A stretch of 64,000 nucleotides of DNA from contig JBEHWO010000002.1 of NCBI GenBank assembly GCA_040217695.1, positions 8,538 through 72,537 of the forward strand, read 5' to 3'. Below are positions 3,829 through 39,947 of the stretch, in pieces; position 1 is the first letter of the stretch; every line of letters begins with the position of its first letter. This DNA is from Vulcanimicrobiota bacterium. GTDB taxonomy: Bacteria > Vulcanimicrobiota > SpSt-956 > JAKJGF01. The notes under the pieces were generated by a model, which was not told where the DNA came from, made no database searches, and saw nothing but the letters and a program-made list of their open reading frames with translations. The position numbers were made by a program, and so were the translations under genes.

Positions 3829-3927
3829 TATACCAAAGTATAACTTCACACAAACTATTCACTGTTTTTTCAGTCAAATTACCTATACTAAAGGATATAT
3901 TTCTTTATTTCCAATAAGCTGTATAAT
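3829..3927 (+). promoter_or_regulatory. Dual-box promoter module P1 (box A, box B, TATAAT) upstream of the GH63-like gene
   Basis: Box A tataccaaagtata 3829-3842. Box B tatactaaaggata 3884-3897, 55 nt later. tataat 3922-3927, 38 nt after the start of box B. No TTGACA-like -35. Confidence 0.55.
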
Positions 3928-3931
3928 ATAT

Positions 3932-4030
3932 TTACTGACCTAAGCATAAGCATGTAATAAAATTTTTTCCTCCCGTTACGCGTCACGCGTCACGAGAGCA
4001 GTTATGTATTATTTATGCTCACCTCAGTAA
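3932..4030. mobile_element. MITE-like repeat element, copy 1 (about 99 bp, TIR TTACTGAnnTGAGCATAA, CGTCACG heptamer core)
   Basis: ttactgacctaagcataagcatg..cctcccgttacgcgtcacgcgtcacgagagc..ttatgctcacctcagtaa. It is the reverse complement of the copies at 46312, 47238 and 56911. Confidence 0.7.
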
Positions 4031-4103
4031 TAAAACGATAGTGGGGAATTTTTTATCGGAGAATAATCAGGTAAACTATAATAAAATAAAGGAGATGCTC
4101 GTT

Positions 4104-6815
4104 ATGGCTCAAAAAACCCATGCAAATGAAGAAAAAAGACTTAAAGAAACAAAAGAAAAAAAGATACCATGGAAAAAATGGGGGCCCTATCTTTCAGATA
4201 GGCAGTGGGGTACTGTAAGGGAAGATTACAGCAGTGACGGAAATGCCTGGGATTATTTCCCCCATGATCAGTCCCGCTCCAGAGCATACAGATGGGGAGA
4301 AGACGGACTGGGAGGCATAAGTGATGAAAGACAGAACCTCTGTTTTGCCCTTGCCCTGTGGAACGGACAGGATGGGATAATCAAGGAAAGACTCTTCGGC
4401 CTCACAAACAGCGAGGGAAACCACGGAGAAGATGTAAAGGAATATTATTATTACCTTGACAGCACTCCAACCCATTCCTACATGAAATACCTCTATAAAT
4501 ATCCCCAGGATCCTTTCCCCTATGGACAGCTTATCAAAAAGAACAGGGAACTTACAAGACATGATTTCGAATATGAACTCATAAATACAGGAGTTTTCGA
4601 CAGAAACCGTTATTTTGATGCCTTTGTGGAATATGCCAAAAAAGACCCGGAGGAAATCTTAATAAAAATTACCATTCATAACAGAGGAGATATGGAGTGG
4701 ACTCTCCATGTAATGCCCACTCTATGGTTTCGGAATACATGGTCATGGTCTCAAGGTGCAGAGAGGCCGGAATTGAAAGAAGTAAAATCTTCTGTCATTA
4801 AGGCTTCCCACCCGGAACTTGGTGACAGGTACCTATACTGTGAAGGCTCTCCTGAACTTCTATTTACGGAAAATGAGACGAACATGGAGCGTATCTTCAA
4901 CAGAAAGAGCAGAACTCCCTATGTAAAAGACGGAATAAATAATTATGTAGTCTACGGAAAAAAAGAGGCAGTAAATCCGCAGAAAAGAGGGACAAAAGCA
5001 TCACCTTACTATGTCCTCAAAATAGCTCCCGGCAAGGCATCTGTCATAAGATTATGTCTCTCTGATAAAGGTCTTTCAGATTCTGGTAAAATATTTGAAA
5101 ATTTTGAAGATATAATGAAAACCCGTGTGGAAGAAACAGATGAATTTTATGAAACCATATCTCCTCCATCTCTTACGAAAGATGAAAAGAACGTAATGAG
5201 ACAGGCTCTTTCCGGAATGCTCTGGTCAAAACAGTTCTTCAATTTTGATCTTGATACATGGCTCAAAGAACATGGAGTGGATCCATTTAAGACCTTAAAA
5301 GCCTCGGGGGTAAGAAACAGCGAATGGCATCATATGATAAATGAAGATGTTGTATCCATGCCTGATAAATGGGAATATCCCTGGTATGCAGCATGGGATC
5401 TGGCCTTTCATACACTCGCCCTCGGCATGGTAGATATTGATTTTGCAAAAAGCCAGCTTGCTCTGATGCTGAAAGAAACCTATCTTCATCCCCATGGACA
5501 GATACCTGCCTATGAATGGAATTTCAGTGATGTAAATCCTCCGGTACATCCCTGGGCAACTATTTATCTCTACAGAATGGAAAAGGAACTTCATGGCAAA
5601 GCAGATATAAATTTCTTAAAACAGATGTTCACAAAACTTACATTAAACTTTTCCTGGTGGGTTAATAAAAAGGACAGAGGAGGAAGGAATATTTACGAAG
5701 GAGGCTTCCTGGGCCTTGATAATATAGGTATATTTGACAGGAGTTCTCCCCTTCCTACAGGAGGTTATCTTGAACAGGCAGATGCTACGGGATGGGTTGC
5801 CCTTTTTGCCCAGAATATGGTTGAAATAGGCCTTGAACTTGTCATGCATGATCCGACCTATGAAGATATGGTAATTAAATTTGTGGAACATCTTCTCTGG
5901 ATAGGCAATTCCATTTACAGACTCGGTGAACATTCGGAAGGCATGTGGGATGAAAAAGACGGATTTTTCTATGATGTATTGAGACTGCCTGACGGAAGCA
6001 GCCGCAGAATGAAGGTACGTTCTATGGTAGGACTTCTTCCTCTATGTGCCACAACTACAATATCTGCTGAAATGCTGGAGAAATTACCCCATCTTCTGGC
6101 CAGGGCAAAGAAGAGGGCTGAAAGATTACCGGAACTAAAGAAAGCCCTCACTTATATGGGGAAACCAGGTTTTAACGGAAACACTCTTCTGGCTCTTATT
6201 GATGAAGGGAAACTCAGGCGCATACTAAATAAATTACTCGATGAAAATGATTTTTTAAGCACATACGGCATAAGGGCTCTTTCCCGTTATCATCTTGAAC
6301 ATCCCTATGTCGTAAATATAAAGGGCCAGGAATTCCGTGTAGATTATGTTCCTGCAGAATCTGACACAGGCATGTTCGGAGGCAATTCAAACTGGAGGGG
6401 GCCCATATGGTTCCCCATGAATCTGCTCATTCTCAGGGGTCTCCTTATGTTCTACGGTTATTTCGGGAATGATTTTAAGGTAGAATGTCCCACAGGTTCA
6501 GGCATAAAAATGAATTTATTTGAAGTAACCCTGGAAATTGCCAGACGCCTTTCAAACATATTCCTGAAAGATGAACATGGTTTAAGGCCTGTTTACGGAG
6601 GGGCAGATAAATTCCAGAATGATCCCCATTTCCGTGATTATCTGTTATTTTATGAATATTTCCACGGAGACAATGGCGCAGGTATCGGTGCAAGCCATCA
6701 AACAGGCTGGACAGGACTTGTAGCAAGACTTATTCAGACTCTCGGCTTTGCCAATGCAGATAAATTACTCGGCGAGGGTGCTGCAAAAGGCGTAACTGCT
6801 TATAAAAAAAGTTAA
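4104..6815 (+). CDS. GH63-like (MGH1-type) glycoside hydrolase / glucosidase
   Basis: The long ORF is open from 4041. The ATG at 4104 sits 9 nt after AAGGAG. The N-terminal signature WGPYLSDRQWGTVREDYS..AWDYFPHDQSRSRAYRWGEDG..ERLFGLTN.EGNHGEDVKEYYYYLD and an (alpha/alpha)6-type C-terminus are recalled from this family. Confidence 0.75.
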   Translation: MAQKTHANEEKRLKETKEKKIPWKKWGPYLSDRQWGTVREDYSSDGNAWDYFPHDQSRSRAYRWGEDGLGGISDERQNLCFALALWNGQDGIIKERLFGLTNSEGNHGEDVKEYYYYLDSTPTHSYMKYLYKYPQDPFPYGQLIKKNRELTRHDFEYELINTGVFDRNRYFDAFVEYAKKDPEEILIKITIHNRGDMEWTLHVMPTLWFRNTWSWSQGAERPELKEVKSSVIKASHPELGDRYLYCEGSPELLFTENETNMERIFNRKSRTPYVKDGINNYVVYGKKEAVNPQKRGTKASPYYVLKIAPGKASVIRLCLSDKGLSDSGKIFENFEDIMKTRVEETDEFYETISPPSLTKDEKNVMRQALSGMLWSKQFFNFDLDTWLKEHGVDPFKTLKASGVRNSEWHHMINEDVVSMPDKWEYPWYAAWDLAFHTLALGMVDIDFAKSQLALMLKETYLHPHGQIPAYEWNFSDVNPPVHPWATIYLYRMEKELHGKADINFLKQMFTKLTLNFSWWVNKKDRGGRNIYEGGFLGLDNIGIFDRSSPLPTGGYLEQADATGWVALFAQNMVEIGLELVMHDPTYEDMVIKFVEHLLWIGNSIYRLGEHSEGMWDEKDGFFYDVLRLPDGSSRRMKVRSMVGLLPLCATTTISAEMLEKLPHLLARAKKRAERLPELKKALTYMGKPGFNGNTLLALIDEGKLRRILNKLLDENDFLSTYGIRALSRYHLEHPYVVNIKGQEFRVDYVPAESDTGMFGGNSNWRGPIWFPMNLLILRGLLMFYGYFGNDFKVECPTGSGIKMNLFEVTLEIARRLSNIFLKDEHGLRPVYGGADKFQNDPHFRDYLLFYEYFHGDNGAGIGASHQTGWTGLVARLIQTLGFANADKLLGEGAAKGVTAYKKS

Positions 6816-6838
6816 ATAAAATTAAGGAGGTTTTTATT

Positions 6839-7891: not shown

Positions 7892-7910
7892 AAGTTTTTA
7901 GATTTATAGA

Positions 7911-7938
7911 GCAGGAGTCAGCCATAGCTGTCTCCTGC
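7911..7938 (+). terminator. Hairpin downstream of the esterase gene
   Basis: gcaggagtcagc / cata / gctgtctcctgc: a 12-bp stem with one mismatch. No clear T-tract. Confidence 0.4.
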
Positions 7939-7953
7939 GCTATAAACTGTTTA

Positions 7954-7989
7954 CCATCCACCGCTATACCTCAGGTTAGCGGTGGATGG
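7954..7989. terminator. Perfect 13-bp hairpin between convergent genes
   Basis: ccatccaccgcta (7954-7966), a 10-nt loop, tagcggtggatgg (7977-7989). Confidence 0.55.
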
Positions 7990-7994
7990 TTGAC

Positions 7995-8921
7995 CTACAT
8001 TTTATAGTTGAAACCTATATTAAGAATCCAGTTTTTATCAGAGTTTGTCATACCTTTTGTTATTTTAAAAATCAACTGTTTATCTTCACTCAATTCTCTG
8101 TTATATCCGGCACCAATGGCAAGAAAACTGAAGTCAGCGTTACTGTTATCAGGAAATTCTCTTCCTATATCCATATAAAGATAGTCTTTTTCATTTAACT
8201 TACAGCCCAATTTTATAGCAGATTTTCCTTCCTGATAATAATCATCGTCACTGTCATCATCTGCGGCATAATCGACTTTATCTGTCCAGCTGCCTCTTAT
8301 GGAAATATCAAAGTCATCAGTCAATTTGTAATCAAGGGAACAGGAAAGAGTTCCAAGATAGGCATCATCGGAGAAATGTTCTGTTCCGGAAGGACATTTC
8401 GTCCCCGCCGTTACTGCCATAGATATTCTTTTTCTCCGTAAAAAATTCCATTTCAAAGCGATAGTAATATCATCAATTCCCATATAATGGTTTTTATACT
8501 GCAGAAAATCACTGTAAACTATCAGTTCCAATCTGTCCGTAAGGGTAAAACGGAGTAAAAAGGGCATAGATATTTTTGTTGGTTTATCATTTTTATAGGT
8601 AGTAATCATAGTGTCTATCTGGTACTGAAATCTATCATGAAAGAGTGTATTGGAATAGCTCAGGCTGTCATCTTTTTCTTCTTTATTTTCCGGAGAAGGA
8701 GACCCCTCTTACTGCACTGAAGGTTTATTTTGATTATCATCTAAAATTACTAAAGCTTTGCCTGAAACTTCAGAGGGATAAACAATATAATTAAACGTTA
8801 CAGGAAACGTAATATCCGGTTCTTTTGCAAAAGATCCGGCAGAACACAAAAGAATCAAAATGAGTATAGAAAATACTATTTTTTTGAAATATTTTATATA
8901 TTTTATAAAAAAATCCCCCTG
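7995..8921 (-). pseudogene. Outer-membrane beta-barrel gene (MetA-pathway/transporter-like), disrupted by an in-frame TAA and lacking a canonical start codon
   Basis: The 204-aa ORF 7995-8609 continues upstream in the same frame: ..KYFKKIVFSILILILLCSAGSFAKEPD.. (signal peptide) ..NQNKPSVQ-TAA(8711-8709)-EGSPSPENKEEKDD..TMITTYKND. No ATG, GTG or TTG lies between the upstream stop (8924-8922) and the signal peptide. Confidence 0.6.
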
Positions 8922-9064
8922 TCACAGGTGTGGGTTAAAAATTTATTTATATTTTACCATATAAAAAATTTAAAATCATTCATATAACTATACTTTTGCA
9001 GAATCTTATAAAAGCCTTATCTGTAGTGAACAGGCAATGGTTCACTACTTACCTATCATTAACC

Positions 9065-9162
9065 TATACCAAAGTATAATTAAAAATAATTTTTTTCTAT
9101 TTTTTTTACTTATTTACCTATACTAAAGTGTATATTTCTTTATTTATAATAAGGTATATAAT
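9065..9162 (+). promoter_or_regulatory. Dual-box promoter module P2
   Basis: Box A tataccaaagtata 9065-9078. Box B tatactaaagtgta 9119-9132 (54 nt). tataat 9157-9162 (38 nt). The inter-box spacer is nearly identical to that of P3. Confidence 0.55.
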
Positions 9163-9247
9163 ATATTTGTACAATTATGGACTGGAATTCAGGAAATGTC
9201 TAAAAAAATATGGATTATGCCATAGATCGTGATAATGAGAATGGAGA

Positions 9248-9272
9248 GGTTTTCTGGCACAGTTCTATAAAA
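9248..9272 (+). promoter_or_regulatory. Conserved 25-nt motif GGTTTTCTGGCACAGTTCTATAAAA, copy 1 of 2
   Basis: Near-identical to 22611-22636. Both copies lie 10-30 nt upstream of start codons of exported proteins. Confidence 0.35.
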
Positions 9273-9280
9273 CCAAGAAA

Positions 9281-10471
9281 GTGAAGGTGTTCTGTTATTT
9301 GATTAAAAAAAGTTTATTAATATTATTAATATTATTTCTTCTGGCTGCATGTGATGTATCTCCTGCTTTTTCTTACATAGAAAAACACGTAAATAAAAGA
9401 GACAAAATTTTCGAACCTCTTACCGATGAAACTCTTACCAATGAAAACCAGGATAATTCTTCATCTATCTGTTCTGATGATAATACTCAGTTAAGTCCGG
9501 ATAATTACGATTTTAACGAAAAAAAATTAGGAAATATAAATCTGGAAAGATATAATTACAGGACATCCTTATCAGTCACAGATTATGATAACAAAAACAG
9601 TATTACTGCTGATAATTCCAGAGAAGAAAAAGTTCCTGACAGGGAAAAGAAAGAAGAGCCAGATACGGTAGAAAAAGCTCCTGTTTCCGGGGAAGAGAAA
9701 AAAGAGGATCCAAATACAGCAGAGAAAGCTCCTGTTTCCGAAGAAGAAAAAAAGGAAGAGCCAAATACAGGAGAAAACCCTGCAAAGCCAAAAACCAGAT
9801 TTGAATTGAGATTTAAATATCAAAATCTTTCCAATGATAGAGATGCTTTAGCCCTCACCTTTCGCGCCGATAAAGTTATAGATCTTGATAATCGCTGGGC
9901 TCTTGCACTCAGATTTGATTTCCCCCTTTTACTCAATGATGTTTCTCCCGTAAGTGCAGGCCCTGCAGAAAACTACAAATTCGGCTCAAGTGATCTAGTT
10001 GCTCAAATACTTTTTATTCCTCCGAGGAATAGAAATTTTGATATTTTCTTCGGCGTGCAGCACATACTTCCCGTGGGAAGTGATGATCAGTTCGGCAGAG
10101 GGAAATATATTATTGCCCCTGTATTTGGAGTGGTAGATGTGCCTTCATCTTTACCGGGAGGAAGTTTTTCCGGATTTCTTCTGAGAAATGAAATCAGTTA
10201 TGCAGGGAATGAAGATAGACGGGATGTAAATGAACTTGTCATTCAGCCCTTTTTAAATGTAATGCTTCCTGACAGATGGTTTATATATATGTCACCTCAC
10301 ATGAGAATAAACTGGGCACAGAATAACAGTTTCTTCCTTCCCATTGATCTTACCGTAGGAAAAGTTGTGGGTAAAAATAAGTCTATCTCTGTAAAAGCAA
10401 GTGTGGGAGTTATAAAAGATTATAACTTTTATGACTATGAACTGGAATTTACGACAGCCATATATTTTTAA
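9281..10471 (+). CDS. Exported (lipobox LLAAC) protein with an acidic repeat linker and a C-terminal beta-barrel-like domain
   Basis: GTG start. Leader LLILLILFLLAAC. Three copies of EKKEEPxTxEKAPVS. The beta-rich C-terminus ends in an aromatic residue (..FTTAIYF). Confidence 0.7.
   Translation: MKVFCYLIKKSLLILLILFLLAACDVSPAFSYIEKHVNKRDKIFEPLTDETLTNENQDNSSSICSDDNTQLSPDNYDFNEKKLGNINLERYNYRTSLSVTDYDNKNSITADNSREEKVPDREKKEEPDTVEKAPVSGEEKKEDPNTAEKAPVSEEEKKEEPNTGENPAKPKTRFELRFKYQNLSNDRDALALTFRADKVIDLDNRWALALRFDFPLLLNDVSPVSAGPAENYKFGSSDLVAQILFIPPRNRNFDIFFGVQHILPVGSDDQFGRGKYIIAPVFGVVDVPSSLPGGSFSGFLLRNEISYAGNEDRRDVNELVIQPFLNVMLPDRWFIYMSPHMRINWAQNNSFFLPIDLTVGKVVGKNKSISVKASVGVIKDYNFYDYELEFTTAIYF
9643..9779 (+). 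repeat. In-frame 51-bp tandem repeat (about 2.7 copies) inside the 9281-10471 CDS
   Basis: Units at 9643-9693, 9694-9744 and 9745-9779 encode EKKEEPDTVEKAPVSGE / EKKEDPNTAEKAPVSEE / EKKEEPNTGENP. Confidence 0.85.
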
Positions 10472-10477
10472 TAAAAT

Positions 10478-10495
10478 CGTGATGCGTGATGCGTA
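10478..10495. repeat. Heptamer array (CGTGATG x2.5), a variant of the GTGACGC family
   Basis: cgtgatgcgtgatgcgta, 7 nt after the stop of the upstream gene. Confidence 0.8.
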
Positions 10496-10554
10496 TAAAA
10501 AACCTCATCTGTAAAGACATAGATTACGATAGAACGGGAAAGGAGTAAAAGATA

Positions 10555-10971
10555 ATGGCAGAAAAAGAACAAAAATCGGCAAATGATTTAGCAGTTGACC
10601 GTACTGACCTTGCAGTTGAGAGAACTATTATGGCGGCAAACAGGAGCCTGATGGCCTGGGTACGCACAGGCCTGTCCCTTATAAGTTTTGGTTTTACCAT
10701 ATACAAATTCCTTCAGGCTGAAATAAAGATCTCAGGGACTTCCCTGATAACAGCCCATGGCCCCCGTCGTTTCGGCCTTATGCTTATAGCTCTCGGCACA
10801 GCATCTGCCATAGCAGGTGCACTGGAGTATTTCGGCACAGTAAAGAGATTGAACAGGCTTTTTAATATGAAATTCAGCCCTGTAAATGTTTCTTTTATTG
10901 TGGGACTTGTAGTAACCCTTATAGGATTATTCCTCTTTATTACTATTTTGACTCATACAGAAGTGTTTTAA
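10555..10971 (+). CDS. DUF202 (YidH-like) membrane protein
   Basis: An RBS (GGAAAGGAG) is present. LAVDRTDLAVERTIMAANRSLMAWVRTGLSLISFGFTI followed by 2 further TM segments. Confidence 0.75.
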   Translation: MAEKEQKSANDLAVDRTDLAVERTIMAANRSLMAWVRTGLSLISFGFTIYKFLQAEIKISGTSLITAHGPRRFGLMLIALGTASAIAGALEYFGTVKRLNRLFNMKFSPVNVSFIVGLVVTLIGLFLFITILTHTEVF

Positions 10972-10989
10972 TAAAAGAAAGGAATTTTT

Positions 10990-11352
10990 ATGGAACATCA
11001 TAAAACCATTTTTCATCTGATAGAATTAATTGCCATTGGAATTGAGATTTTAGGCGTTGCAGTAATAGGTTTTTCCTTTCCCTTTGGAATAATCAGAAGC
11101 ATTTTCCATCATTTTCAGAAAAAAGGCGATGCCTTCAAGGAACTTAAAATTTATATAGGAAAATCATTGCAACTGGGGCTGGAATTTCTTATAGCGGCAG
11201 ATGTTATAAAGACAGTAACCATAGAGCCTACAATGAACGGGTTATTATCTCTCGGTCTGTTGATTCTCGTAAGAACGATACTGAGCTGGTCTATTATACT
11301 GGAAATAGAAGGCTGCTGGCCATGGAATATATCAAAAAACAGAAAGGAATGA
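10990..11352 (+). CDS. DUF1622-like small membrane protein
   Basis: 120 aa, 3-4 TM segments, motif LQLGLEFLIAADVIKTV. Confidence 0.65.
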   Translation: MEHHKTIFHLIELIAIGIEILGVAVIGFSFPFGIIRSIFHHFQKKGDAFKELKIYIGKSLQLGLEFLIAADVIKTVTIEPTMNGLLSLGLLILVRTILSWSIILEIEGCWPWNISKNRKE

Positions 11353-11356
11353 AACT

Positions 11357-11743
11357 ATGGAAGATATTTTGATGAGATTTGTTACTAATTTTTTCGGCCG
11401 GTTAGATGGCCCACTTCATTTCCGGTTTATCTTTCAGCCTCTTATGGCAGTCATATTTGCGGTTATTGACGGGCGTAAAGATGCACTACATCGTAAAACT
11501 GCCTATTTATTGACTGTAGTTACCGATCCGGCACAGCGCAAAGAACTTTTAAAAGAAGGCTGGAAGAGTTTCGGGAAGATTTTTATTATGGCAGTCATTC
11601 TTGACATTGTCTATCAGCTGACAGTTCATCATACTATTTATCCCGGTGAAACCCTATTAGTAGCCTTCATCCTGGCTATTTTACCCTATATTGCACTGCG
11701 CGGCCTGGTTAACCGCCTCATACGCATGTTCAAAAAACATTGA
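11357..11743 (+). CDS. Small membrane protein of unknown function, paralogue of 28965-29390
   Basis: FGRLDGPLHFRFIFQPLMAV..GWKSFGKIFIMAVILDIVYQ aligns with LGRLDGPMHMRLILQPLMAS..GWKDFGKIFIAAFILDTVYQ in the paralogue. Confidence 0.7.
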   Translation: MEDILMRFVTNFFGRLDGPLHFRFIFQPLMAVIFAVIDGRKDALHRKTAYLLTVVTDPAQRKELLKEGWKSFGKIFIMAVILDIVYQLTVHHTIYPGETLLVAFILAILPYIALRGLVNRLIRMFKKH

Positions 11744-11765
11744 AAGGAATCAGGTTCAAAAAAAA

Positions 11766-13046
11766 ATGACAGATACATCTCATGCATTTCATGTTATGGC
11801 CAAACCGGCAGGTTCTGCCTGCAATCTTCACTGTGACTACTGTTTCTTCCTGAAAAAGGAAAAACTTTATCCTGGAAGCAATTTCCGTATGTCTCATGAG
11901 GTTCATGAAGCTTATATCAGGCAGCTATTCGAAGCCCATAAGGTTCCTCAGGTAACAGTGGCATGGCAGGGAGGGGAACCGACACTGATGGGTCTGGATT
12001 TTTTCAGGCACTCTTTAGAATTACAGAAGCATTATGCAAAACCCGGCACTCAGATTGAGAATACCTTTCAGACCAACGGCATACTCCTTGACTACAACTG
12101 GTGCCGTTTTTTTCATGAGAATAATTTCCTTATCGGTCTGAGTATGGACGGGCCGAAAGAGCTTCATGACTTTTACCGTAAAGATACCGGAGGACATGGA
12201 ACTTTTGAGAAGGTTATGAAATCTGCCGGACTGCTTCAGGAACATAAGGTAGAATTTAACATACTCTGCACAGTCAATTCAAAAAACGGTTCTCACCCTC
12301 TGGAGGTTTACCGGTTCTTCCGGGATGAACTTAAAGCCCAATACATACAGTTTATTCCCATAGTAGAGAGGGATAATGAAAGCGGTTTTCAGGAAGGTAA
12401 CAGAGTGACTGACAGATCTGTCCGGCCTGATCAGTGGGGGCATTTTTTGATTAAAATCTTCGATGAGTGGGTCAAAAGAGATGTGGGCCAGACCTTCGTT
12501 CTGAATTTTGATGGGGTACTGGCCGGCTGGATAGGGAGGGCAGGAACTATATGCATATTCGGTCCTACATGCGGTCAGGGCGTGGCTCTGGAACACAACG
12601 GGGACCTCTATTCCTGCGACCATTTCGTCGAACCTGATTACTATCTGGGAAACATTCTGAAGACACCGATGAGCGAACTGGTAGATTCTGAAAAACAGAG
12701 GAAATTCGGACAGGATAAAAGGGATAATCTGCCTCAGTTCTGCCGAAAATGTGATTTTCTCTCTGCCTGTAACGGCGAGTGTCCGAAGAACCGATTCGTA
12801 GAGACGTCTGATGGAGAACAGGGGCTGAACTACCTCTGCGAAGGTTTTAAAGCTTTTTTTAAACACTCTGACAGGGCAATGAAGATTATGGCCGGGTTGA
12901 TTCAGAAGGGCAGACTGGCAGAAGAAGTAATGACGTTAATAGAAAAAAAAGAGAATGGAGGGGAAAATCCATCAATGAAACAGGGCAGAAATGAATTCTG
13001 TTTCTGCGGGAGTGGAGTGAAGTTCAAGAAGTGTCACGGAAAATAA
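11766..13046 (+). CDS. Anaerobic sulfatase-maturating enzyme (radical SAM/SPASM) with a C-terminal SEC-C motif
   Basis: MTDTSHAFHVMAKPAGSACNLHCDYCF (CxxxCxxC), GGEPTL, and SPASM cysteines CGQG..CDHF..CRKCDFLSACNGECPKNR. Tail CFCGSGVKFKKCHG. The 11691 start would overlap the upstream gene and was rejected. Confidence 0.85.
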   Translation: MTDTSHAFHVMAKPAGSACNLHCDYCFFLKKEKLYPGSNFRMSHEVHEAYIRQLFEAHKVPQVTVAWQGGEPTLMGLDFFRHSLELQKHYAKPGTQIENTFQTNGILLDYNWCRFFHENNFLIGLSMDGPKELHDFYRKDTGGHGTFEKVMKSAGLLQEHKVEFNILCTVNSKNGSHPLEVYRFFRDELKAQYIQFIPIVERDNESGFQEGNRVTDRSVRPDQWGHFLIKIFDEWVKRDVGQTFVLNFDGVLAGWIGRAGTICIFGPTCGQGVALEHNGDLYSCDHFVEPDYYLGNILKTPMSELVDSEKQRKFGQDKRDNLPQFCRKCDFLSACNGECPKNRFVETSDGEQGLNYLCEGFKAFFKHSDRAMKIMAGLIQKGRLAEEVMTLIEKKENGGENPSMKQGRNEFCFCGSGVKFKKCHGK

Positions 13047-13053
13047 AGTTTGA

Positions 13054-13251
13054 CCAATTTTAGAAAAGATCTACCATAACTCGAAAACTTACTGGGAGCA
13101 GGTGATTTTTCACGCCTGCCTGCTCTACGGAATGCAGGCAATGGTGGCACAGCAGTTCGAATCTTACATCAAGTTCCATCCCAGCCAAAAGCCTGCCTCC
13201 TTCAACCTGGATATGGTAATGAGAAAGCTGGAGGAAGCATCGGCTGGCAGG
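13054..13251 (+). pseudogene. Possible 3' gene remnant with no start codon, at the left edge of the GC-rich island
   Basis: 66-codon open frame ..YWEQVIFHACLLYGMQAMVAQQFESYIKFHPSQKPASFNLDMVMRKLEEASAGR-stop. No start codon or RBS is present and I do not recognise the family. Confidence 0.25.
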
Positions 13252-13394
13252 TAAAATAAGTTGTTCTGCAATTACGCAGGTTAAATAAACAGTTCTTCCC
13301 GGCAGACAAACGATCTGCCATGGAACTCTGTTGTATAAAATAAACTATGGGTTTCATCTAATTCTCAATGAAACCCGCAGAAAGGAAGAAAACA

Positions 13395-14870
13395 ATGAAA
13401 AAAGCAAGCACACAAAACCCGACACCTGGCTACAACTACAGGATCCCCGAGCAGATAATGACTCCCGATACTGTGGAGACACGGATCGGCACACTCAAGT
13501 TCTTCGATGGTTTTCCAACTGAGGAGACGACTCAGAAAGTCTATGACCACCTGGATTTCATCAGGGGTGTCGAGGTGTTCCTCAACTTCATTCCGGCGAC
13601 TTCCATCGAAGCGATGCGCCGGGGCAACCTGGAACTGGGCGCCATTACGGCTAACCAGGTTCTCATCATGGACGAATTGTGCGATTCGTCTCCACTGTTT
13701 CTCACGGCTAACACCGATACAGTTTACGTTTCAGGCTTTATAGACCTGGGGAAAGACGGCCCCACGGTCGTGGAGATTCCGCCTGGATGCGGACCTGGCA
13801 CAGTGAACGATGCCTTTTTCCGCTTTGTCATTGATATGGGCGGACCGGGACCAGACAGGGGGAAAGGCGGTAAATATCTAATCTTGCCTTCTGATTACAG
13901 TGGCGAGGAGCCAGAGGGCTATTTCGTGTCCCGCTCACCCTCCTATGTGAACTGGTTGATTCTGCGCGGCTTCCTGGTGGATGGCAAACCAGATACAGCC
14001 AACAAAAACTTCAGGGACGGCCTGAAAGTATATCCCCTCTCCCAGAGGAATAATCCGCCGGCCATGCAGTTCATCAGCGCATCGAAGCTGTCCTACAACA
14101 CGATTCACGCAAACACCTACGAGTTCTATGAGGAGCTGGCTCACTTACTGGCCAGGGAGCCGGTAGACTTCATTGACCCGGAACTGCGCGGCCTCGCAGC
14201 CAGCATCGGCATCCGTAAAGACAGACCCTTTGCCCCTGATGCACGAATGAAGGCCATCCTGACCGAAGCCGTCTCTGTAGGTAATGCCACTGCAAGGGCC
14301 ATCTGCTTTGAAACCCGCGACAGAGAGGCCTATTACTACAAGAACAGCGCATGGAAGATGGCATTCGTCGGCGGAGATTACCGGTGGTTGATTGATGGCG
14401 GAACTGGCGGCAGGAATCTGGATGCCCGCACACTCTTCTTCTATGCAGCCACAGTGAATACTCCCGCCATGGCGATGAAAATGGTCGGTCTGGGCTCCCA
14501 GTATGCCTATGCAGAACATGACAGAGACGGAAACTTCCTGGACGGGGGGAAGAACTACAGACTGAATATCCCGGGTAACGTGCCTGCCAGAGACTTCTGG
14601 TCAGTAGTTGTTTACGATCCGCAGACCCGCTCCGAACTTCAGACATCCCAGCCATTTCCCAGCAAGAACAGCAAGAGGGATCCACTGGCCGTGAATGATG
14701 ACGGATCAGTGGATCTCTATTTCGGCCCTACTGCTCCGGCCGGCAAAGAAAAGAACTGGACTGAGACTGTTCCCGGCAAAGGCTGGTTCCCCATACTGCG
14801 TCTCTACGGCCCGCTGGAACCATGGTTTGACCAGACCTGGAAGCCGGGAGAGTTCGAACAGTTGAAGTGA
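13395..14870 (+). CDS. DUF1254/DUF1214 domain protein
   Basis: GC-rich ORF. The ATG at 13395 follows AAAGGAAG. The 13368 ATG lies inside a leader hairpin (13349-13376). The two-domain architecture is recalled from this family (..FLTANTDTVY.. / ..RTLFFYAATVNTPAMA..FWSVVVYD). Confidence 0.75.
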   Translation: MKKASTQNPTPGYNYRIPEQIMTPDTVETRIGTLKFFDGFPTEETTQKVYDHLDFIRGVEVFLNFIPATSIEAMRRGNLELGAITANQVLIMDELCDSSPLFLTANTDTVYVSGFIDLGKDGPTVVEIPPGCGPGTVNDAFFRFVIDMGGPGPDRGKGGKYLILPSDYSGEEPEGYFVSRSPSYVNWLILRGFLVDGKPDTANKNFRDGLKVYPLSQRNNPPAMQFISASKLSYNTIHANTYEFYEELAHLLAREPVDFIDPELRGLAASIGIRKDRPFAPDARMKAILTEAVSVGNATARAICFETRDREAYYYKNSAWKMAFVGGDYRWLIDGGTGGRNLDARTLFFYAATVNTPAMAMKMVGLGSQYAYAEHDRDGNFLDGGKNYRLNIPGNVPARDFWSVVVYDPQTRSELQTSQPFPSKNSKRDPLAVNDDGSVDLYFGPTAPAGKEKNWTETVPGKGWFPILRLYGPLEPWFDQTWKPGEFEQLK

Positions 14871-15026
14871 ATAAACCAATCAATGAGAGAAAGGACAGAA
14901 CAATAAAAAAAAGAAACAAACAAAACTTCCCCGCCGCCGCGTCCGATGGCACTCAGACCGAACAGATCGGCTGGTTGGGAAGACATAAAGAACAGGAGTA
15001 ATCTAAATAAAGAGAGGAGAAATATT

Positions 15027-17390
15027 ATGTCAATCAAGACCTATAAAGATGGAACCCCTTTTACCGGCGTCATTGGACGCACTACCGAAGAGTCCTCTCC
15101 GGCATGGCCGGAACCTCAGCGCCCCCGGGAGGGTGCACCAAACGTGCTCTTCTTCGTGCTGGACGATGTGGGATACGGACAGTTATCGAGCTTCGGAGGG
15201 CTGGTGGAAACGCCGGTGATGGACAGCCTTGCCGCAAACGGCCTGCGCTACACCAACATGCACACCACTGCCCTGTGTTCGCCGTCGCGCGGCTGCATCA
15301 TTACAGGGCGCAATCACCACTCCCTCGGGCTGGCATCGATCACCGAGCTATCCACCGGATACCCGGGCTACAACGGTATCCTGCCTTTTGACAAGGGCAT
15401 GCTCAGCGAGATACTGCTGCCGCAGGGCTACAATACTTTCTGTATCGGGAAGTGGCATCTGACTCCCCCTGAACACGAAACAGCGGCAGGTCCCTACGAC
15501 AGATGGCCCCTTGGCCGCGGGTTCGAGCGTTACTACGGATTCCTGGGGGGCGACACCAACCAGTGGTATCCGGAACTGGTCTATGACAACCACGGAATCG
15601 AGCAGCCCAGGACGCCGGAGGAGGGTTATCACCTGAGCATCGATCTGGCTGATAAGGCTATCGAGTTCATCCAGGATGCCCACGTCAATGCGCCGGAAAA
15701 GCCTTTCTTCCTGTATTACGCCACTGGCGCAGGCCACGCGCCGCACCATGTGCCCAGGGAATGGGCAGACAGGTACAAAGGCAAATTCGATATGGGCTGG
15801 GACGAGTACCGCAAAATCGTCCACCAGCGCCAGCTCAAGATGGGCATCATACCCCCGGGTACCGAACTGTCGCCCCATGACCCTGACGTGCCGGTCTGGG
15901 ATACCCTTCCGGCCCACGCCAGACAGCTCTATGCCAGGATGATGGAGGTCTATGCGGGCTTTATTACCTTTACAGATCATCATTTTGGACGGATTCTTGA
16001 GTTCCTGAAAGAGATCGGCGAACTGGACAATACTCTGATTATGGTTATATCAGACAATGGCGCCAGCTCCGAGGGCGGAGTCGTGGGCTCTCTCAACGAG
16101 ATGTGCTTTTTCAACAACCTGAAGGAGTCCCTCGAGGACAATCTCAAGCAGATAGATAAGCTGGGCGGTGTGGAAGTTTTCAACCATTACGCCTGGGGCT
16201 GGACCAATGCCGGCAACACGCCGTTCCGCCGCTGGAAGCGCGAGACCTACAGGGGCGGCTGCACAGACCCCTGCATCGTGTCCTGGCCGAAGGGTATCAA
16301 GGCCCGCGGCGAGATACGGGCACATTACGCCCATGCCATTGACCTGGTACCCACGGTTTTAGAAGCCCTGGGTATGGAGGCACCGGAGAGCATCCGCGGA
16401 GTGACCCAGGCGCCCATAGATGGTGTGAGTTTCGCCCACACCTTTGACAATGCTGCTGCACCCGGCAATCACCACACACAGTATTTCGAAATGTTCGGTC
16501 ACAGATCGATCTACCATGACGGCTGGAGGGCGGTCTGTCCGTGGCCTGGCCCGAACTTTACCGAGGCCGCAAAGAAGGGCCGCCAGTTCGGCTCCCCCAT
16601 TACAAACGAGGTGCTGATGGATATCGAGGCTCATGACTGGGAACTGTACCACATTGATAAGGACTACTCCGAATGTCATAACCTGGCTGCCGAGAACCAT
16701 GAAAAGGTAATTGAAATGGTGGGCCGCTGGTGGGCTGAAGCCGGTAAGTACCAGGTGCTGCCCATCGATGGCAGTTCCTTACCACGGATGAACGTGGAAC
16801 GCCCGACTATAGCCAGACCGAGAAACAAGTTTGTCTATTACCCGGGCGGGTCGTCGATTCCATTTTCCGCCGCACCAAAATCCTACAACCGGCCCTGGAG
16901 CATCACGGCCGATGTCGTGATTCCGAAGGGCGGCGCAGAAGGGGTTCTGCTGGCCCATGGCGGACGTACCGGCGGTTACACCATGTTTATCAAGAACCAC
17001 CGTCTCTACTTCCTGTACAACTTCCTGGCCCGTGACAGATTCTGGCTCAAGTCAAACGAGATTGTTCCCGAAGGCGAAGTCGAACTGCGTTACGAGTTCG
17101 AGCCAACTGGCAAGCCAGACGTGGCCAATGGGAAAGGAGTGCCGGCCCGGGGCCAGCTTTACATCAACCGCAGGCTGGTTGCCAGCATCGATATGCCCCA
17201 TTCGGTACTGAACATGTACGGGACTGAGGGTCTTTCCTGCGGCTATGACGGCGGATCTCCCATAGCACCGGAAGAATACACAGATGAGTTCCGATTCACC
17301 GGGACCATCAAGCGTGTCACAGTGGATCTGTCCGGTGAGCTCATCCCGGATAGTGAAGCCGACCTGAAGATCGCCATGGCGCGGCAGTAA
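15027..17390 (+). CDS. Cys-type arylsulfatase (formylglycine-dependent)
   Basis: The RBS AGAGGAG lies 8 nt upstream. VLFFVLDDVGYGQLSSFGG..TALCSPSRGCIITG (the C-x-P-x-R FGly motif)..GKWHL..ISDNGAS. Confidence 0.9.
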   Translation: MSIKTYKDGTPFTGVIGRTTEESSPAWPEPQRPREGAPNVLFFVLDDVGYGQLSSFGGLVETPVMDSLAANGLRYTNMHTTALCSPSRGCIITGRNHHSLGLASITELSTGYPGYNGILPFDKGMLSEILLPQGYNTFCIGKWHLTPPEHETAAGPYDRWPLGRGFERYYGFLGGDTNQWYPELVYDNHGIEQPRTPEEGYHLSIDLADKAIEFIQDAHVNAPEKPFFLYYATGAGHAPHHVPREWADRYKGKFDMGWDEYRKIVHQRQLKMGIIPPGTELSPHDPDVPVWDTLPAHARQLYARMMEVYAGFITFTDHHFGRILEFLKEIGELDNTLIMVISDNGASSEGGVVGSLNEMCFFNNLKESLEDNLKQIDKLGGVEVFNHYAWGWTNAGNTPFRRWKRETYRGGCTDPCIVSWPKGIKARGEIRAHYAHAIDLVPTVLEALGMEAPESIRGVTQAPIDGVSFAHTFDNAAAPGNHHTQYFEMFGHRSIYHDGWRAVCPWPGPNFTEAAKKGRQFGSPITNEVLMDIEAHDWELYHIDKDYSECHNLAAENHEKVIEMVGRWWAEAGKYQVLPIDGSSLPRMNVERPTIARPRNKFVYYPGGSSIPFSAAPKSYNRPWSITADVVIPKGGAEGVLLAHGGRTGGYTMFIKNHRLYFLYNFLARDRFWLKSNEIVPEGEVELRYEFEPTGKPDVANGKGVPARGQLYINRRLVASIDMPHSVLNMYGTEGLSCGYDGGSPIAPEEYTDEFRFTGTIKRVTVDLSGELIPDSEADLKIAMARQ

Positions 17391-17401
17391 AAATATTATT
17401 G

Positions 17402-17430
17402 ACCGGTAGTCCGGTTCTGGACTGCCGGTT
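17402..17430 (+). terminator. Imperfect hairpin after the sulfatase gene
   Basis: accggtagtccgg..ctggactgccggt, 12 nt after the stop. Confidence 0.4.
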
Positions 17431-17483
17431 ACCGGAGATAAACAGACAAATGACAAATATTATCAGTAACAGGTGATTGGATT

Positions 17484-18653: not shown

Positions 18654-18682
18654 GATATTTATAATAAAAAAAGCATTTTTTA

Positions 18683-18781
18683 TATACCAAAGTATAGTTT
18701 AAAACAATTTTTTTTCTATTTTTTTACTTATGTACTTATACTAAAGTATAGGTTTTTTTTATTTATAACAGGGTATATAAT
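18683..18781 (+). promoter_or_regulatory. Dual-box promoter module P3
   Basis: Box A tataccaaagtata 18683-18696. Box B tatactaaagtata 18737-18750 (54 nt). tataat 18776-18781 (39 nt). Confidence 0.6.
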
Positions 18782-24465: not shown

Positions 24466-24584
24466 TTGTAATCACCTCATTATATATTATAACATATTAT
24501 TTTCTTTATCCTGAGAATTTCTGAAGAGATTTTTTGCTGTAAATTCTTCCATATTATTGAATATTTTATATTTCCTCCAGAACG

Positions 24585-27840: not shown

Positions 27841-27841
27841 A

Positions 27842-29390: not shown

Positions 29391-29411
29391 AGTTTAGTTC
29401 CTCTGAGAAAT

Positions 29412-29446
29412 AGACCGGGAGTTAGATTGACTCTATCTCCCGGTCT
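29412..29446 (-). terminator. Intra-operon hairpin directly downstream of the GRE gene; possible partial terminator
   Basis: agaccgggag / 15-nt loop / ctcccggtct: a 10-bp perfect stem between the GRE stop (29451) and the next gene start (29390). Confidence 0.4.
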
Positions 29447-29450
29447 GTTA

Positions 29451-31928: not shown

Positions 31929-31979
31929 AAATATAATCCTTTCTTTCAGGGGCGCATATCTCACTGCACCCCTGTGTGA

Positions 31980-33011: not shown

Positions 33012-33099
33012 ATTATAGCAATAATAACAGAAGGATGTAAATTATACTTTAGTATAGGTTCACTGCTATGGTTTGATAAAATTTATATACTAAAGTATA
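33012..33099 (-). promoter_or_regulatory. Dual-box promoter P4-minus driving the SDR-GRE operon
   Basis: On the minus strand: box A 33099-33086, box B 33056-33043 (tatactaaagtata, 43 nt later), tataat 33017-33012 (39 nt after the start of box B). Confidence 0.55.
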
Positions 33100-33129
33100 A
33101 TTTGTATTTTTTATTAAATCTAATATAAT
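33043..33129 (+). promoter_or_regulatory. Dual-box promoter P4-plus; uses the same two boxes in mirror image
   Basis: Box A 33043-33056, box B tatactaaagtata 33086-33099 (43 nt), tataat 33124-33129 (38 nt). It points into the antisense strand of the PIN/antitoxin pair. Confidence 0.5.
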
Positions 33130-33173: not shown

Positions 33174-33590
33174 TTATTGAGGTTTTCTTAAAAATCCCAT
33201 ATGTTCAAAATGTCTATCAAAAGCAAATACTTCTATAAGACCGAGTTTTTCCATTACAACTTTACTTGTACAATCAGTGAAAGACCATATTTTGTCTCTA
33301 TTAAACTGTTCAAAAACTTCCCAGGAATATTTTTCTATTTCTATATTTACATAATATATAATAAGCAGATTATTACTTATAAATTGATCCAGTTTATATT
33401 TAAAATCAATTGTTTTCCCATAGCCTGTATTCATCAGCATTAATGTATAGGTTTCATCCAGAATATAATTGGTAGTGATAAGACGGCTTCTGGAAATAAG
33501 AATTTTATTCTTAAATTCCATTGCTTTTTCATGATTGGCATCTTTCTTATCTTCAATAGCTATCCATGCACCTGTATCTACAAAGATCAT
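33174..33590 (-). CDS. vapC: PIN-domain toxin (VapC-like)
   Basis: MIFVDTGAWIAIEDKKDANHEKA.., conserved acidic residues, and a 4-nt overlap (ATGA) with the upstream antitoxin. Confidence 0.8.
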   Translation of the reverse strand: MIFVDTGAWIAIEDKKDANHEKAMEFKNKILISRSRLITTNYILDETYTLMLMNTGYGKTIDFKYKLDQFISNNLLIIYYVNIEIEKYSWEVFEQFNRDKIWSFTDCTSKVVMEKLGLIEVFAFDRHFEHMGFLRKPQ

Positions 33591-33829
33591 TTTTTTTCTC
33601 CATATAAATATTGATTATGATTTTCAGAAGGATTATCTAAAATACCTTCTACAGCATCTTCTCCAAATTTTTTTAATAATTCCCAGCCTTCCAATCTGAC
33701 TGACGGCAATATAAATATAGCCCCCTTCTGGATTACTAATTCCACCTCTTCACCTATATCTGCTTCATTTATTATAGATTTTCCAAGTACAAGACGATTA
33801 TTTATTTTTTGTTTTAAAATCCTGCTCAT
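33587..33829 (-). CDS. vapB: AbrB/SpoVT-type antitoxin (VapB-like)
   Basis: 80 aa. RLVLGKSIINEADIGEEVELVIQKGAIFILP, a swapped-hairpin barrel signature. Translationally coupled to the PIN gene. Confidence 0.7.
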   Translation of the reverse strand: MSRILKQKINNRLVLGKSIINEADIGEEVELVIQKGAIFILPSVRLEGWELLKKFGEDAVEGILDNPSENHNQYLYGEKK

Positions 33830-33989: not shown

Positions 33990-34088
33990 TATACTAAAGT
34001 ATAGTTTTTTTATTTTTTACATAATATATTTCTCATAGTTTCTTATACTAAAGGGTAATATACTTACCATATTTCCCAATGATATAAT
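33990..34088 (+). promoter_or_regulatory. Dual-box promoter module P5
   Basis: Box A tatactaaagtata 33990-34003. Box B tatactaaagggta 34044-34057 (54 nt). tataat 34083-34088 (39 nt). Confidence 0.55.
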
Positions 34089-34144
34089 AAATTAATTCTC
34101 TTCTTTAGAAAAATCACCGGTAATTATAAAAGGAGGTTACATTT

Positions 34145-35191: not shown

Positions 35192-35199
35192 TATATATA

Positions 35200-35907: not shown

Positions 35908-35963
35908 GGATGCTTATGGTAATGACGGTACCCTTCGCCAGGAGTGCAATGGTATTAAGATAA

Positions 35964-36000
35964 GGGAAATCTCTCCATGATTTCCCTCCCCGTCGGGGAG
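35964..36000 (+). terminator. Two adjacent hairpins after the cyclase gene
   Basis: gggaaatc/tctccat/gatttccc, then ctcccc/gtc/ggggag. Confidence 0.45.
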
Positions 36001-36060
36001 AAGTCAGGAGAGGGGGCGAATTTAATTGTTTATCTTTTAAGGTTTAAAGGAACAGCCAAT

Positions 36061-39198: not shown

Positions 39199-39219
39199 AA
39201 GAGCCATGAGATGGTTTAG

Positions 39220-39286
39220 AGTTGATAGTTGATAGTTTTATTTAATTCTTTCACCTCTCAACCCTCAACCCTCAACCCTCAGTTAA
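39220..39286. repeat. Two heptamer arrays: AGTTGAT x2-3 and CAACCCT x3 (5 units in register)
   Basis: agttgat agttgat agtttta ... cacctct caaccct caaccct caaccct cagttaa, between convergent genes. Confidence 0.85.
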
Positions 39287-39771
39287 TATCTCCCTGTTCC
39301 TCCGCAGGAAGAACATTTACCTGTACCGCAGCAGGAACCGCATCTATCATCTGAACCCGGCCCGGCCTTACCTGAACCAACGGGACAGCAGTAGCTACAT
39401 TCACCTGTACCGTCACACCAGACACATTCCGGCTTTTGCTCCCCTCTGGTCTTAAGGGCTTCATCAGATGGATGATATTTTCTTATAACCTCAACCTTTT
39501 TACTTTCTTTATCATACCTGATAATAACTTCCCATTTATTTTCTCCTTCTTTAAATGGAATATTGACAGGCACCATATAGAGGTCTTTTTCTCCTTTACA
39601 GACAATGGAGGTTTCCTGCCCGTCCATATATACCTTAAGAGTCTCGGAAACAGCACAGAAAGCTTTTGATATAAAACAGTTTTCTTTAAAAGACAGGGTA
39701 ATCTGAGATAAAAAAACGAGAAGCAGCAGGGCAGAAGAGAAGATTAAGACACTTCTTCCAATTTTTTTCAT
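39283..39771 (-). CDS. Small exported protein with C-terminal DnaJ-type CxxCxGxG zinc-finger repeats
   Basis: The RBS AAGGAGGTG is present. Leader LIFSSALLLLVFL. C-terminus CVWCDGTGEC..CGSCCGTGKCSSCGGTGRY. Confidence 0.7.
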   Translation of the reverse strand: MKKIGRSVLIFSSALLLLVFLSQITLSFKENCFISKAFCAVSETLKVYMDGQETSIVCKGEKDLYMVPVNIPFKEGENKWEVIIRYDKESKKVEVIRKYHPSDEALKTRGEQKPECVWCDGTGECSYCCPVGSGKAGPGSDDRCGSCCGTGKCSSCGGTGRY

Positions 39772-39857
39772 AACTTATTCACCTCCTTATGATTTTAATG
39801 CAGATTTAACTGGCTATGTTCAAAATTCTTTAGAATGAGTCATAATCCTTCATATAT

Positions 39858-39947
39858 TATACCAAAGGATAAGTTGAGTAACCCTTCAACGGAATAAAAC
39901 CTATACTTTGGTATAGGTTTTATTATTTACCAAAAGTGATATATAAT
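39858..39947 (+). promoter_or_regulatory. Dual-box promoter module P6
   Basis: Box A tataccaaaggata 39858-39871. Box B tatactttggtata 39902-39915 (44 nt, inverted orientation). tataat 39942-39947 (40 nt). Confidence 0.45.

Follow-up and report, generated by a model that had tools for sequence, protein, structure and literature searches.

The 64,000-nt stretch of a Vulcanimicrobiota bacterium analyzed here (contig JBEHWO010000002.1, positions 8,538 to 72,537 of the forward strand; referred to below as the window) contains six loci at which two palindromic boxes of the form TATAC-N4-GTATA are arranged in tandem upstream of a TATAAT hexamer, giving seven promoters in total. These boxes most likely represent an undescribed regulon of a FixJ/StyR-type response regulator, ordinary in kind. 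The boxes and their geometry are kept in four low-GC relative metagenomic contigs, L208 (with L209), L213, L214, and L216, in which the surrounding DNA has diverged, and genes for a response regulator of this type are found beside the boxes in three of the four. To our knowledge, nothing is known about transcription control in this uncultured low-GC diderm lineage, for which the analysis provides a cis-regulatory code and a named candidate regulator. The kind of system, a two-component regulator acting at palindromic sites that replace the -35 element, is well known, and it is the motif, the regulon, and the lineage that are undescribed. Since the mechanism is a textbook one, the value of the finding lies in annotation and experimental design and not in a new principle.

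The boxes are strongly overrepresented in the window. The exact pattern TATACYAAAGTATA occurs eight times versus 0.00 times expected from 100 shuffles, and when one mismatch is allowed, TATAC-N4-GTATA is found at 14 positions versus 2.1 expected. Twelve of these 14 one-mismatch occurrences form six pairs (3829/3884, 9065/9119, 18683/18737, 33043/33086, 33990/34044, and 39858/39902), exactly the coordinates given in the initial annotation, which was made from the sequence alone. A symmetrized weight matrix built from the 12 sites showed that the full box is an 18-bp palindrome with the consensus CCTATAC-N4-GTATAGG; the length of 14 nt given for it initially is too short. With the 18-bp matrix, the 12 sites score 17.9 to 24.8 bits, the next best sequence in the 64 kb scores 13.4 bits, and the scan of the window revealed no weaker or additional sites, so that the motif is all-or-none within the window. 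All six loci are intergenic in DNA that is about 90% coding. Inverted-repeat sites with half-sites of 6 to 7 bp and a short spacer, as found here, are expected of a FixJ/NarL-type regulon. The four exact box strings had no match in the searched literature.

The geometry of the promoters is also highly regular. The box-to-box distances, measured from center to center, are 55, 54, 54, 54, 43, and 44 nt, in agreement with the earlier description of 54 to 55 nt at four loci and 43 to 44 nt at two, and the spacings of the window and its relatives taken together fall into two classes of 43 to 44 and 53 to 55 bp, corresponding to 4 or 5 helical turns. In the 53- to 55-bp class, the spacers contain A/T tracts of 6 nt or more, which in many cases are phased by 8 to 11 nt. 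A perfect TATAAT begins 38 to 40 nt after the start of the proximal box at all seven promoters, as had been proposed, and at +37 to +39 in independent promoters of L213, L216, and L152, the last being an unrelated metagenome contig. The best match to a -35 hexamer is no better than 3/6 at six of the seven window promoters. The exception is the minus-strand promoter of the SDR-glycyl radical enzyme (GRE) operon, which has a TTTACA -35 element (5/6) at 18-bp spacing and a TG-extended -10 element; the -10 element of the glucose dehydrogenase (glucose-DH) promoter is TG-extended as well. The initial view that no -35 element is present thus applies to six promoters and does not apply to that of the SDR-GRE operon. 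A good -10 element with a poor or absent -35 element is the pattern of class-II-type promoters, and promoters with a consensus -10 and such a -35 element are expected to depend on a DNA-bound activator. The proximal palindrome is centered 31.5 to 33.5 bp upstream of the first T of TATAAT, which would place it at approximately -43.5 to -45.5, abutting the -35 position, if transcription starts about 7 nt past the hexamer. The layout fits the tandem, class-II-type activator geometry suggested previously and is kept in the relatives; activation, the start sites, and protein binding are inferred. The elements of the modules are as follows, with the offsets of TATAAT counted from the start of the proximal box.

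3829..3842: module 1 distal box, TATACCAAAGTATA, 14/14 positions conserved in L208 and L209
3884..3897, plus strand: module 1 proximal box, TATACTAAAGGATA
3922..3927, plus strand: module 1 TATAAT (-10), 38 nt after the proximal box start
9065..9078: module 2 distal box
9119..9132, plus strand: module 2 proximal box, TATACTAAAGTGTA
9157..9162, plus strand: module 2 TATAAT, +38
18683..18696: module 3 distal box, identical in L213
18737..18750, plus strand: module 3 proximal box
18776..18781, plus strand: module 3 TATAAT, +39
33012..33017, minus strand: SDR-GRE TATAAT, +39, TG-extended, with TTTACA as -35
33043..33056, minus strand: box shared by two promoters, serving as the proximal box of the SDR-GRE promoter on the minus strand and as the distal box of the promoter on the plus strand
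33086..33099, plus strand: proximal box of an orphan promoter, identified through L216 as the ancestral box of the glucose-DH promoter
33124..33129, plus strand: orphan-promoter TATAAT, +38, now facing an inserted PIN/antitoxin pair
33990..34003: glucose-DH module distal box
34044..34057, plus strand: glucose-DH module proximal box, TATACTAAAGGGTA
34083..34088, plus strand: glucose-DH TATAAT, +39, TG-extended
39858..39871: zwf module distal box, TATACCAAAGGATA
39902..39915, plus strand: zwf module proximal box, TATACTTTGGTATA, central spacer inverted
39942..39947, plus strand: zwf module TATAAT, +40

The same measurements bear on the idea that the box is a -35-like element of an alternative sigma factor. 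Region 4 of sigma factors is a GerE-like helix-turn-helix (HTH), and the Sigma70_r4_2 model co-matches GerE proteins, which would accommodate such a factor. However, the box ends 24 to 26 bp before TATAAT, too far for a -35 element, it is palindromic and occurs twice per promoter, and the -10 element is the housekeeping consensus. The geometry excludes this explanation, to which we attach almost no weight.

Comparison with related DNA indicates that the boxes have been maintained while their surroundings changed. The best named protein matches of the window lineage are from Vulcanimicrobiota and Eremiobacterota metagenome-assembled genomes (MAGs), with just 57% to 66% identity. The GH63-like protein has a 91%-identical homologue on the JGI contig L208 and is otherwise 66% to 67% identical to homologues in high-GC Vulcanimicrobiota/Eremiobacterota MAGs. 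Over six pairwise module alignments (five of orthologous promoters and one of paralogous promoters), 155 of 168 box positions are identical versus 685 of 1,163 other positions, the latter including gap columns and poorly alignable flanks. The clearest footprint comes from the SDR/glucose-DH region. In L216, one divergent pair 55 nt apart serves both the SDR and the glucose-DH operons, with a -10 element at +39 on both sides; the boxes of the window and L216 are identical at 27 of 28 positions (the box at 33043 differs from its orthologue at 1 of 14), and the window spacer is 12 nt shorter. A symmetric variant of the box, TGTAC-N4-GTACA, is present in L208, a change that would be tolerable for a palindrome bound by a dimer. 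The distant GH63 orthologues on L210 to L212 (66% to 67% identity, GC content of 0.51) are without boxes, which indicates that the regulon is confined to the low-GC lineage. In L032 (Vulcanimicrobiota, GC content of 0.58), two box-like sequences adjoin each other without related genes and were taken as chance occurrences. Contigs of the sequencing run SRR21798919 encode products identical to two proteins of the window, and a query with a protein from the end of the window matched just one Logan contig of 2.5 kb.

Candidate regulator genes adjoin the boxes in three of the relatives. In L208, the gene 14342-16324, which immediately follows a box pair (14177/14230), encodes a 660-aa regulator that comprises a GAF-like cysteine-rich N-terminus, HisKA, HATPase, and REC domains, and a GerE HTH. 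L213 contains a gene (10001-11968) for a 655-aa histidine kinase (HK)-REC-GerE paralogue with 62% identity, immediately after which come boxes at 12017/12061 with their TATAAT at +38, and then a REC-only gene. In L214 (4846-6848), two separate genes encode the kinase and the REC-GerE regulator, with boxes before (4692/4745) and after (6916/6970) them, the latter standing before a further FixL-like kinase gene. The FixL/FixJ-like kinase-regulator is thus fused in two relatives and split in the third; kinases are not commonly fused to their own DNA-binding regulators. The truncated regulator homologue of L218, with neither an HTH nor boxes, was uninformative.

The same arrangement was also observed in unrelated DNA. 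On L152 (1.6 kb), a box lies directly after a GerE-type regulator gene, with TATAAT at +37/+38, and the same box and offset are found right after a GerE-type regulator gene in L083, which is GC-rich and unrelated. In Thermoanaerobacter/Caldanaerobacter (L081, L004, and L031; L081:3025-3530), a small GerE-type gene is followed by two TATACT(A/T)3GTATA boxes with TATAAT at +38, upstream of a radical SAM (rSAM)/SPASM cluster, so that the same site recurs in a distant phylum. L152 was the only real module among the matches listed from a metagenome scan in which the central four bases were left loose (YWWR); the others were TA-rich satellites and palindromes. A scan of the genome collection, whose representatives do not include the genome of the window, for a proximal box followed by N24-26 and TATAAT gave 86 matches, about one per genome across unrelated phyla and near chance, and its only useful cases were Thermoanaerobacter, L083, and L011.

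The REC-HTH part of the candidate regulator has StyR (1yio, E = 3e-44) as its closest solved homologue, followed by FixJ (5xso) and NarL in the PDB. The best NCBIfam models are FixJ for the REC-HTH part (score of 173 versus a cutoff of 255) and FixL for the kinase core (127 to 159 versus 850), scores far below the equivalog cutoffs, which indicates that the protein is not an orthologue of either. The recognition helix of the candidate regulator, TVKMHRKNIMKKL, is nearly identical to that of StyR, TVKVHRHNIMQKL. Across all box-adjacent GerE proteins, the recognition helices have only the family-wide TVK.H motif in common, which is not discriminating.

The architecture could also be served by an activator of another family, such as a CRP/FNR-type dimer or an uncharacterized HTH protein encoded elsewhere, with the HK-response regulator (RR) genes being mere members of its regulon. 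The core TATAC-N4-GTATA has a 5-4-5 layout, as FNR-type boxes do, and the site abuts the -35 position; moreover, the window itself is without a regulator, and the FixJ/StyR assignment draws on adjacency in other contigs. However, neither a Crp/FNR-type gene nor any other HTH gene was found beside the boxes in the window, L208, L213, L214, L216, or L152, where GerE-type genes occur repeatedly. The site would be centered at approximately -44.5 and not at -41.5, about 3 bp too far upstream for CRP/FNR, and the palindrome extends to a 7-4-7 layout, which is typical of NarL/FixJ-family sites. We regard an activator of another family as unlikely.

We propose that each locus carries a weak promoter of the sigma-70 type, whose -10 element matches the consensus and whose -35 element is poor or absent, and which would depend on a DNA-bound activator. 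The binding protein would be a phosphorylation-controlled dimer of a response regulator of the FixJ/StyR subfamily with a LuxR-type GerE HTH; in this lineage, the FixJ-like regulator would be fused to a FixL-like kinase or encoded beside one. The phosphorylated dimer bound to the proximal palindrome, centered at about -44, would recruit RNA polymerase in a class-II-like manner, and a second dimer 4 or 5 turns upstream may contribute cooperativity, stabilization, or modulation through DNA bending, as compared below with PstyA. The kinase-regulator genes would be autoregulated and thus lie within the regulon, as would the accessory kinase and REC genes of the relatives. We estimate the probability of this mechanism as a whole to be roughly 60%.

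Several observations weigh against this mechanism. No regulator of any kind is encoded in the 64-kb window: a GerE-domain hidden Markov model (HMM) searched against all six frames found no match, and no other HTH Pfam family matched, in line with the initial remark that no regulator was evident there. The first open reading frame (ORF) of the window (117-857), considered as a response regulator, proved to be the C-terminal end of a hybrid kinase without a DNA-binding domain. The regulator segments of L208 and L213 are missing from the window at the syntenic junctions:

7900..7997: junction 1, where L208 has a 2.4-kb segment with a box pair and the 660-aa HisKA-HATPase-REC-GerE gene, absent in the window
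24544..24564: junction 2, where L213 has about 6.5 kb with the 655-aa HK-REC-GerE paralogue, a box pair, and the REC-only gene, absent in the window

The promoters of the regulator genes themselves have TAGAAT at +43 and not TATAAT at +38 to +40. Adjacency is not binding, and the HK-RR genes could be mere targets of another factor. Furthermore, LuxR-type genes are common, and the GerE-adjacent "box" of L029 is really a terminator hairpin and was discounted; single cases of adjacency are therefore weak, and the argument lies in the repeated, immediate adjacency in three relatives and three unrelated settings. The genome collection scan, at about one match per genome, shows that the motif is not a regulon signal shared widely across that collection. 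Finally, the gnd-zwf promoter can apparently exist without boxes, as in L213, where it has the same -10 element and 5' untranslated region (UTR) as in the window.

The boxes might instead be repressor operators, in which case the promoters would be intrinsically active and would be silenced by a tetramer that bridges both boxes and forms a loop of the DNA upstream. Paired operators 4 to 5 helical turns apart with bendable A/T tracts between them would suit such a loop, the -10 element is TG-extended at two promoters and the -35 element is good at one, and StyR bound at its sites STY1 and STY2 makes a repressive loop (PMC2442086). However, both boxes lie clear of the -10 element and of the start site, no usable -35 element is present at six of the seven promoters, which implies a need for recruitment, and in the StyR precedent the site at about -40 activates. 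Repression in place of activation thus appears rather improbable.

Under the proposed activation by a FixJ/StyR-type regulator, the predicted regulon of the window includes envelope proteins (the SLH porin and the outer membrane protein [OMP]-like protein), the GH63-like glycosidase and esterase, the SDR-GRE operon, the glucose-DH-like protein and the cyclase, and formerly gnd-zwf. It would thereby join envelope porins, a GH63-like glycosidase, an HpsG-like glycyl-radical pathway, and sugar-oxidizing enzymes. Of the seven promoters listed in the initial annotation, five drive intact genes. The plus-strand 33086 promoter has no gene in front of it, just an ORF of <25 aa and the antisense strand of the PIN toxin gene, and that at 39902 precedes a truncated zwf. 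The genes are as follows.

Module 1: GH63/MGH1-like glycosidase, 4041-6815; esterase, 6839-7891
Module 2: 396-aa OMP-like protein, 9281-10471, with a homologue 3' of the SLH porin in L208
Module 3: SLH-domain porin, 18827-21133, and genes further downstream
SDR-GRE promoter, minus strand: SDR, 32801-31980; HpsG-like glycyl radical enzyme, 31964-29451; further downstream genes
Glucose-DH module: glucose-DH-like gene, 34145-35191; cyclase, 35200-35907
zwf module: zwf C-terminal remnant (C-terminal third; G6PD_C fragment), 40078-40428

Most of the original gene labels are borne out by Pfam (GH63/MGH1-like, esterase, SLH porin, SDR, GRE, glucose-DH-like, cyclase, and G6PD_C). The exception is the outer membrane barrel label of the 9281-10471 product, which is unverified, as the protein has no family match in Pfam or NCBIfam; its gene contains a 51-nt tandem repeat of 2.6 copies (9644-9777) encoding a Glu/Lys/Pro-rich repeat. 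Matched to the HpsG (2S)-3-sulfopropanediol dehydratase model, whose cutoff is 1,000, the glycyl radical enzyme reaches 988 bits. It is encoded in a minus-strand operon (26917-32801) of SDR, glycyl radical enzyme, rSAM activase, PFK-like, and CMD-family genes, and the HpsG-like GRE operon together with a sulfatase and an rSAM/SPASM protein (11691-17390) hints at organosulfur metabolism.

Some of the modules are copies of one another. The GH63, OMP-like, and SLH-porin promoters and one kinase-gene promoter of L214 align over about 100 bp, from the distal box through a T-tract spacer and the proximal box to TTTATTTATAATAAGGTATATAAT. Judged by this alignment, the three window modules are paralogous copies of one promoter, and they offer a case of a complete, predicted activator-dependent promoter duplicated as a unit. 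The other three loci (33043/33086, 33990/34044, and 39858/39902) have boxes and spacing in common but not spacer sequence, so the earlier suggestion that the module spreads as a cassette is supported at three loci and is not supported at the other three. Since half of the loci share just the boxes and the spacing, the geometry was kept or reached independently, which favors function over mere repetition.

These copies bear on whether the modules could be selfish or recombinogenic repeats (miniature inverted-repeat transposable element [MITE]-like or targets of site-specific recombination) without a regulatory role, their positions reflecting tolerated insertions. A rearranged block lies between two of the three 100-bp paralogues, the zwf promoters of the window and L213 cease to be homologous exactly at the box edge, and the regulator-plus-box segments occupy differing places in L208, L213, and L214, all of which a mobile repeat could account for. 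However, the L213 pair 12017/12061 behaves like the three nonparalogous window loci in having boxes and spacing in common with them and not spacer sequence, the module is always aimed at a start codon 40 to 120 nt away with TATAAT at a fixed offset, and the boxes are better conserved than their surroundings. No terminal inverted repeats past the boxes, target site duplications, or duplicated flanks were seen, and full-length sharing as in MITEs is not found, with only 3 of 6 loci sharing the spacer. A selfish repeat is therefore a very improbable explanation.

The window has been rearranged relative to its kin at several of the modules, which involves the following segments.

9065..18750, plus strand: 9.6-kb block between near-identical cassette copies, rearranged relative to L208, with the OMP-like gene, DUF202, DUF1622, rSAM/SPASM protein, DUF1254/1214, sulfatase, and a 389-aa protein
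33174..33829, minus strand: PIN toxin and 80-aa partner, 33174-33590 and 33587-33829

In L208, a single module stands before the SLH porin gene, and the OMP-like gene lies after the porin gene, while the module is doubled in the window; synteny with L208 thus accounts for the close match of the 9065 and 18683 copies, which arose by duplication of the module around the 9.6-kb block. Within this block, the segment 13368-17390, encoding a DUF1254/DUF1214 protein and an 814-aa sulfatase, has a GC content of 0.55 versus about 0.38 for the window and was probably acquired horizontally; a similar sulfatase adjoins the GH63 gene of L210. Comparison with L216 reveals that the PIN/antitoxin pair was inserted between the halves of a single divergent SDR/glucose-DH promoter region, leaving the 33086 promoter antisense to the toxin gene, and that the glucose-DH gene after the insertion has a second, nonhomologous module. 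At 39992-40428, gnd and the 5' two-thirds of zwf have been deleted relative to L213:15733-18851, behind a perfect module; the zwf of L213 is itself split into two ORFs. The boxes of the zwf module are missing from the L213 gnd-zwf promoter. Overall, the window looks eroded relative to its kin.

It is conceivable, if doubtful, that the two-box unit is a portable, self-contained activator-dependent promoter that is copied and recombined before new genes, that the kinase-regulator genes relocate together with their boxes, and that the regulon is rewired by cassette movement and not by point mutation. This suggestion derives from the copies at 9065 and 18683 that flank the rearranged block, the second module of the glucose-DH gene, and the zwf boxes that are present in the window and absent in L213, facts that allow portability but do not demonstrate it. 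With both regulator copies of the relatives missing at the syntenic sites, the regulon of the window may be orphaned or reassigned.

Other repeats are also present in the window. Short heptamer tandem arrays occur at many intergenic positions, and ACGCGTSACGCGT occurs 22 times versus 0.01 times expected. The arrays are located as follows.

3974-3994, 41385-41417, 45140-45167, 46452-46472, 46617-46646, 49348-49370, 50139-50170, 53433-53462, 56941-56961, and 58603-58632: heptamer arrays, mostly of CGTGACG/ACGCGTC
39257-39281, 50640-50672, 52115-52142, 52163-52195, and 63634-63663: heptamer arrays of other units (CTCAACC, CTATTCA, AGTGAGA, and ACTTTTC)

Heptamer arrays were also found in L208, and they resemble the STRR repeats of cyanobacteria, which are likewise heptameric. 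An element of approximately 100 nt that contains CCTCCC and a heptamer array is repeated at 46305-46406, 47230-47324, and 56904-56999, with an inverted copy at approximately 3929-4028. The copy at 46305-46406 overlaps the start of the gene 45203-46327; compared with L208, the 5' UTR of the GH63-like gene has gained the copy at 3929-4028 by insertion. The element could be a MITE or a regulatory RNA of the 5' UTR. Two paralogous MscS-type channel genes (2066-3652 and 24585-26159) have DNA identities of 67% to 72%; a third copy is present in L208, where it separates the first from the GH63 module. Rfam and tRNA scans of the window found no RNA family and no tRNA.

The proposed mechanism has several known counterparts. 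LuxR (lux box), TraR (tra boxes), and DosR/DevR are dimers with GerE HTHs that bind palindromes at approximately -42 to -45 in place of the -35 element, and DosR uses tandem sites. Their sites are 18 to 20 bp long and of a sequence other than that of the box described here, and LuxR and TraR are controlled by ligands and not by phosphorylation. FixL/FixJ resembles the candidate in being its best NCBIfam match for both parts, with FixJ second among the PDB matches. However, FixL senses through a haem-PAS domain, whereas the candidate has a GAF-like cysteine-rich N-terminus and its kinase and regulator are fused.

The FixJ/StyR-type regulator TodT, of the TodS/TodT system of Pseudomonas putida, also binds two pseudopalindromic boxes, which together with a half-site lie upstream of the PtodX promoter (bioRxiv 10.1101/2025.05.12.653411; PMC2442086). 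The Tod boxes are farther upstream and need bending by IHF to reach RNA polymerase (PMC2442086), in contrast to the proximal box here, which abuts the -35 position. Activation of PstyA of Pseudomonas fluorescens ST, which is controlled by StyS/StyR, requires the high-affinity inverted repeat STY2 at about -40; the other site, STY1, is protected at -110/-90, binding is cooperative with two dimers forming a tetramer, and the DNA between STY1 and STY2 is intrinsically curved (PMC2442086). STY1, rebuilt from the mutagenic primers of that study, reads GTAAAT-ATAA-GTTTAT, and a TT-to-AA change in its GTTTAT half abolishes StyR binding (PMC2442086). The modules described here differ from PstyA in showing no sign of an IHF site or a third downstream site, and from the StyR sites in their half-site (TATAC versus TAAAC/T). 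STY2 and the Tod boxes reportedly read ATAAAC-N4-GTTTAT. StyR also serves styrene catabolism at one promoter, and its kinase is a separate protein, whereas the system described here serves envelope and carbohydrate genes at many promoters, is known from sequence alone, and has a kinase and regulator fused in L208 and L213. Nevertheless, the 6-4-6 layout of STY1 is the same as that of CTATAC-N4-GTATAG, with GT.TA common to GTTTAT and GTATAG, and PstyA, where curved DNA separates the palindrome at about -40 from the site at about -100, is laid out almost like the modules of the window, in which phased A/T tracts correspond to the curvature.

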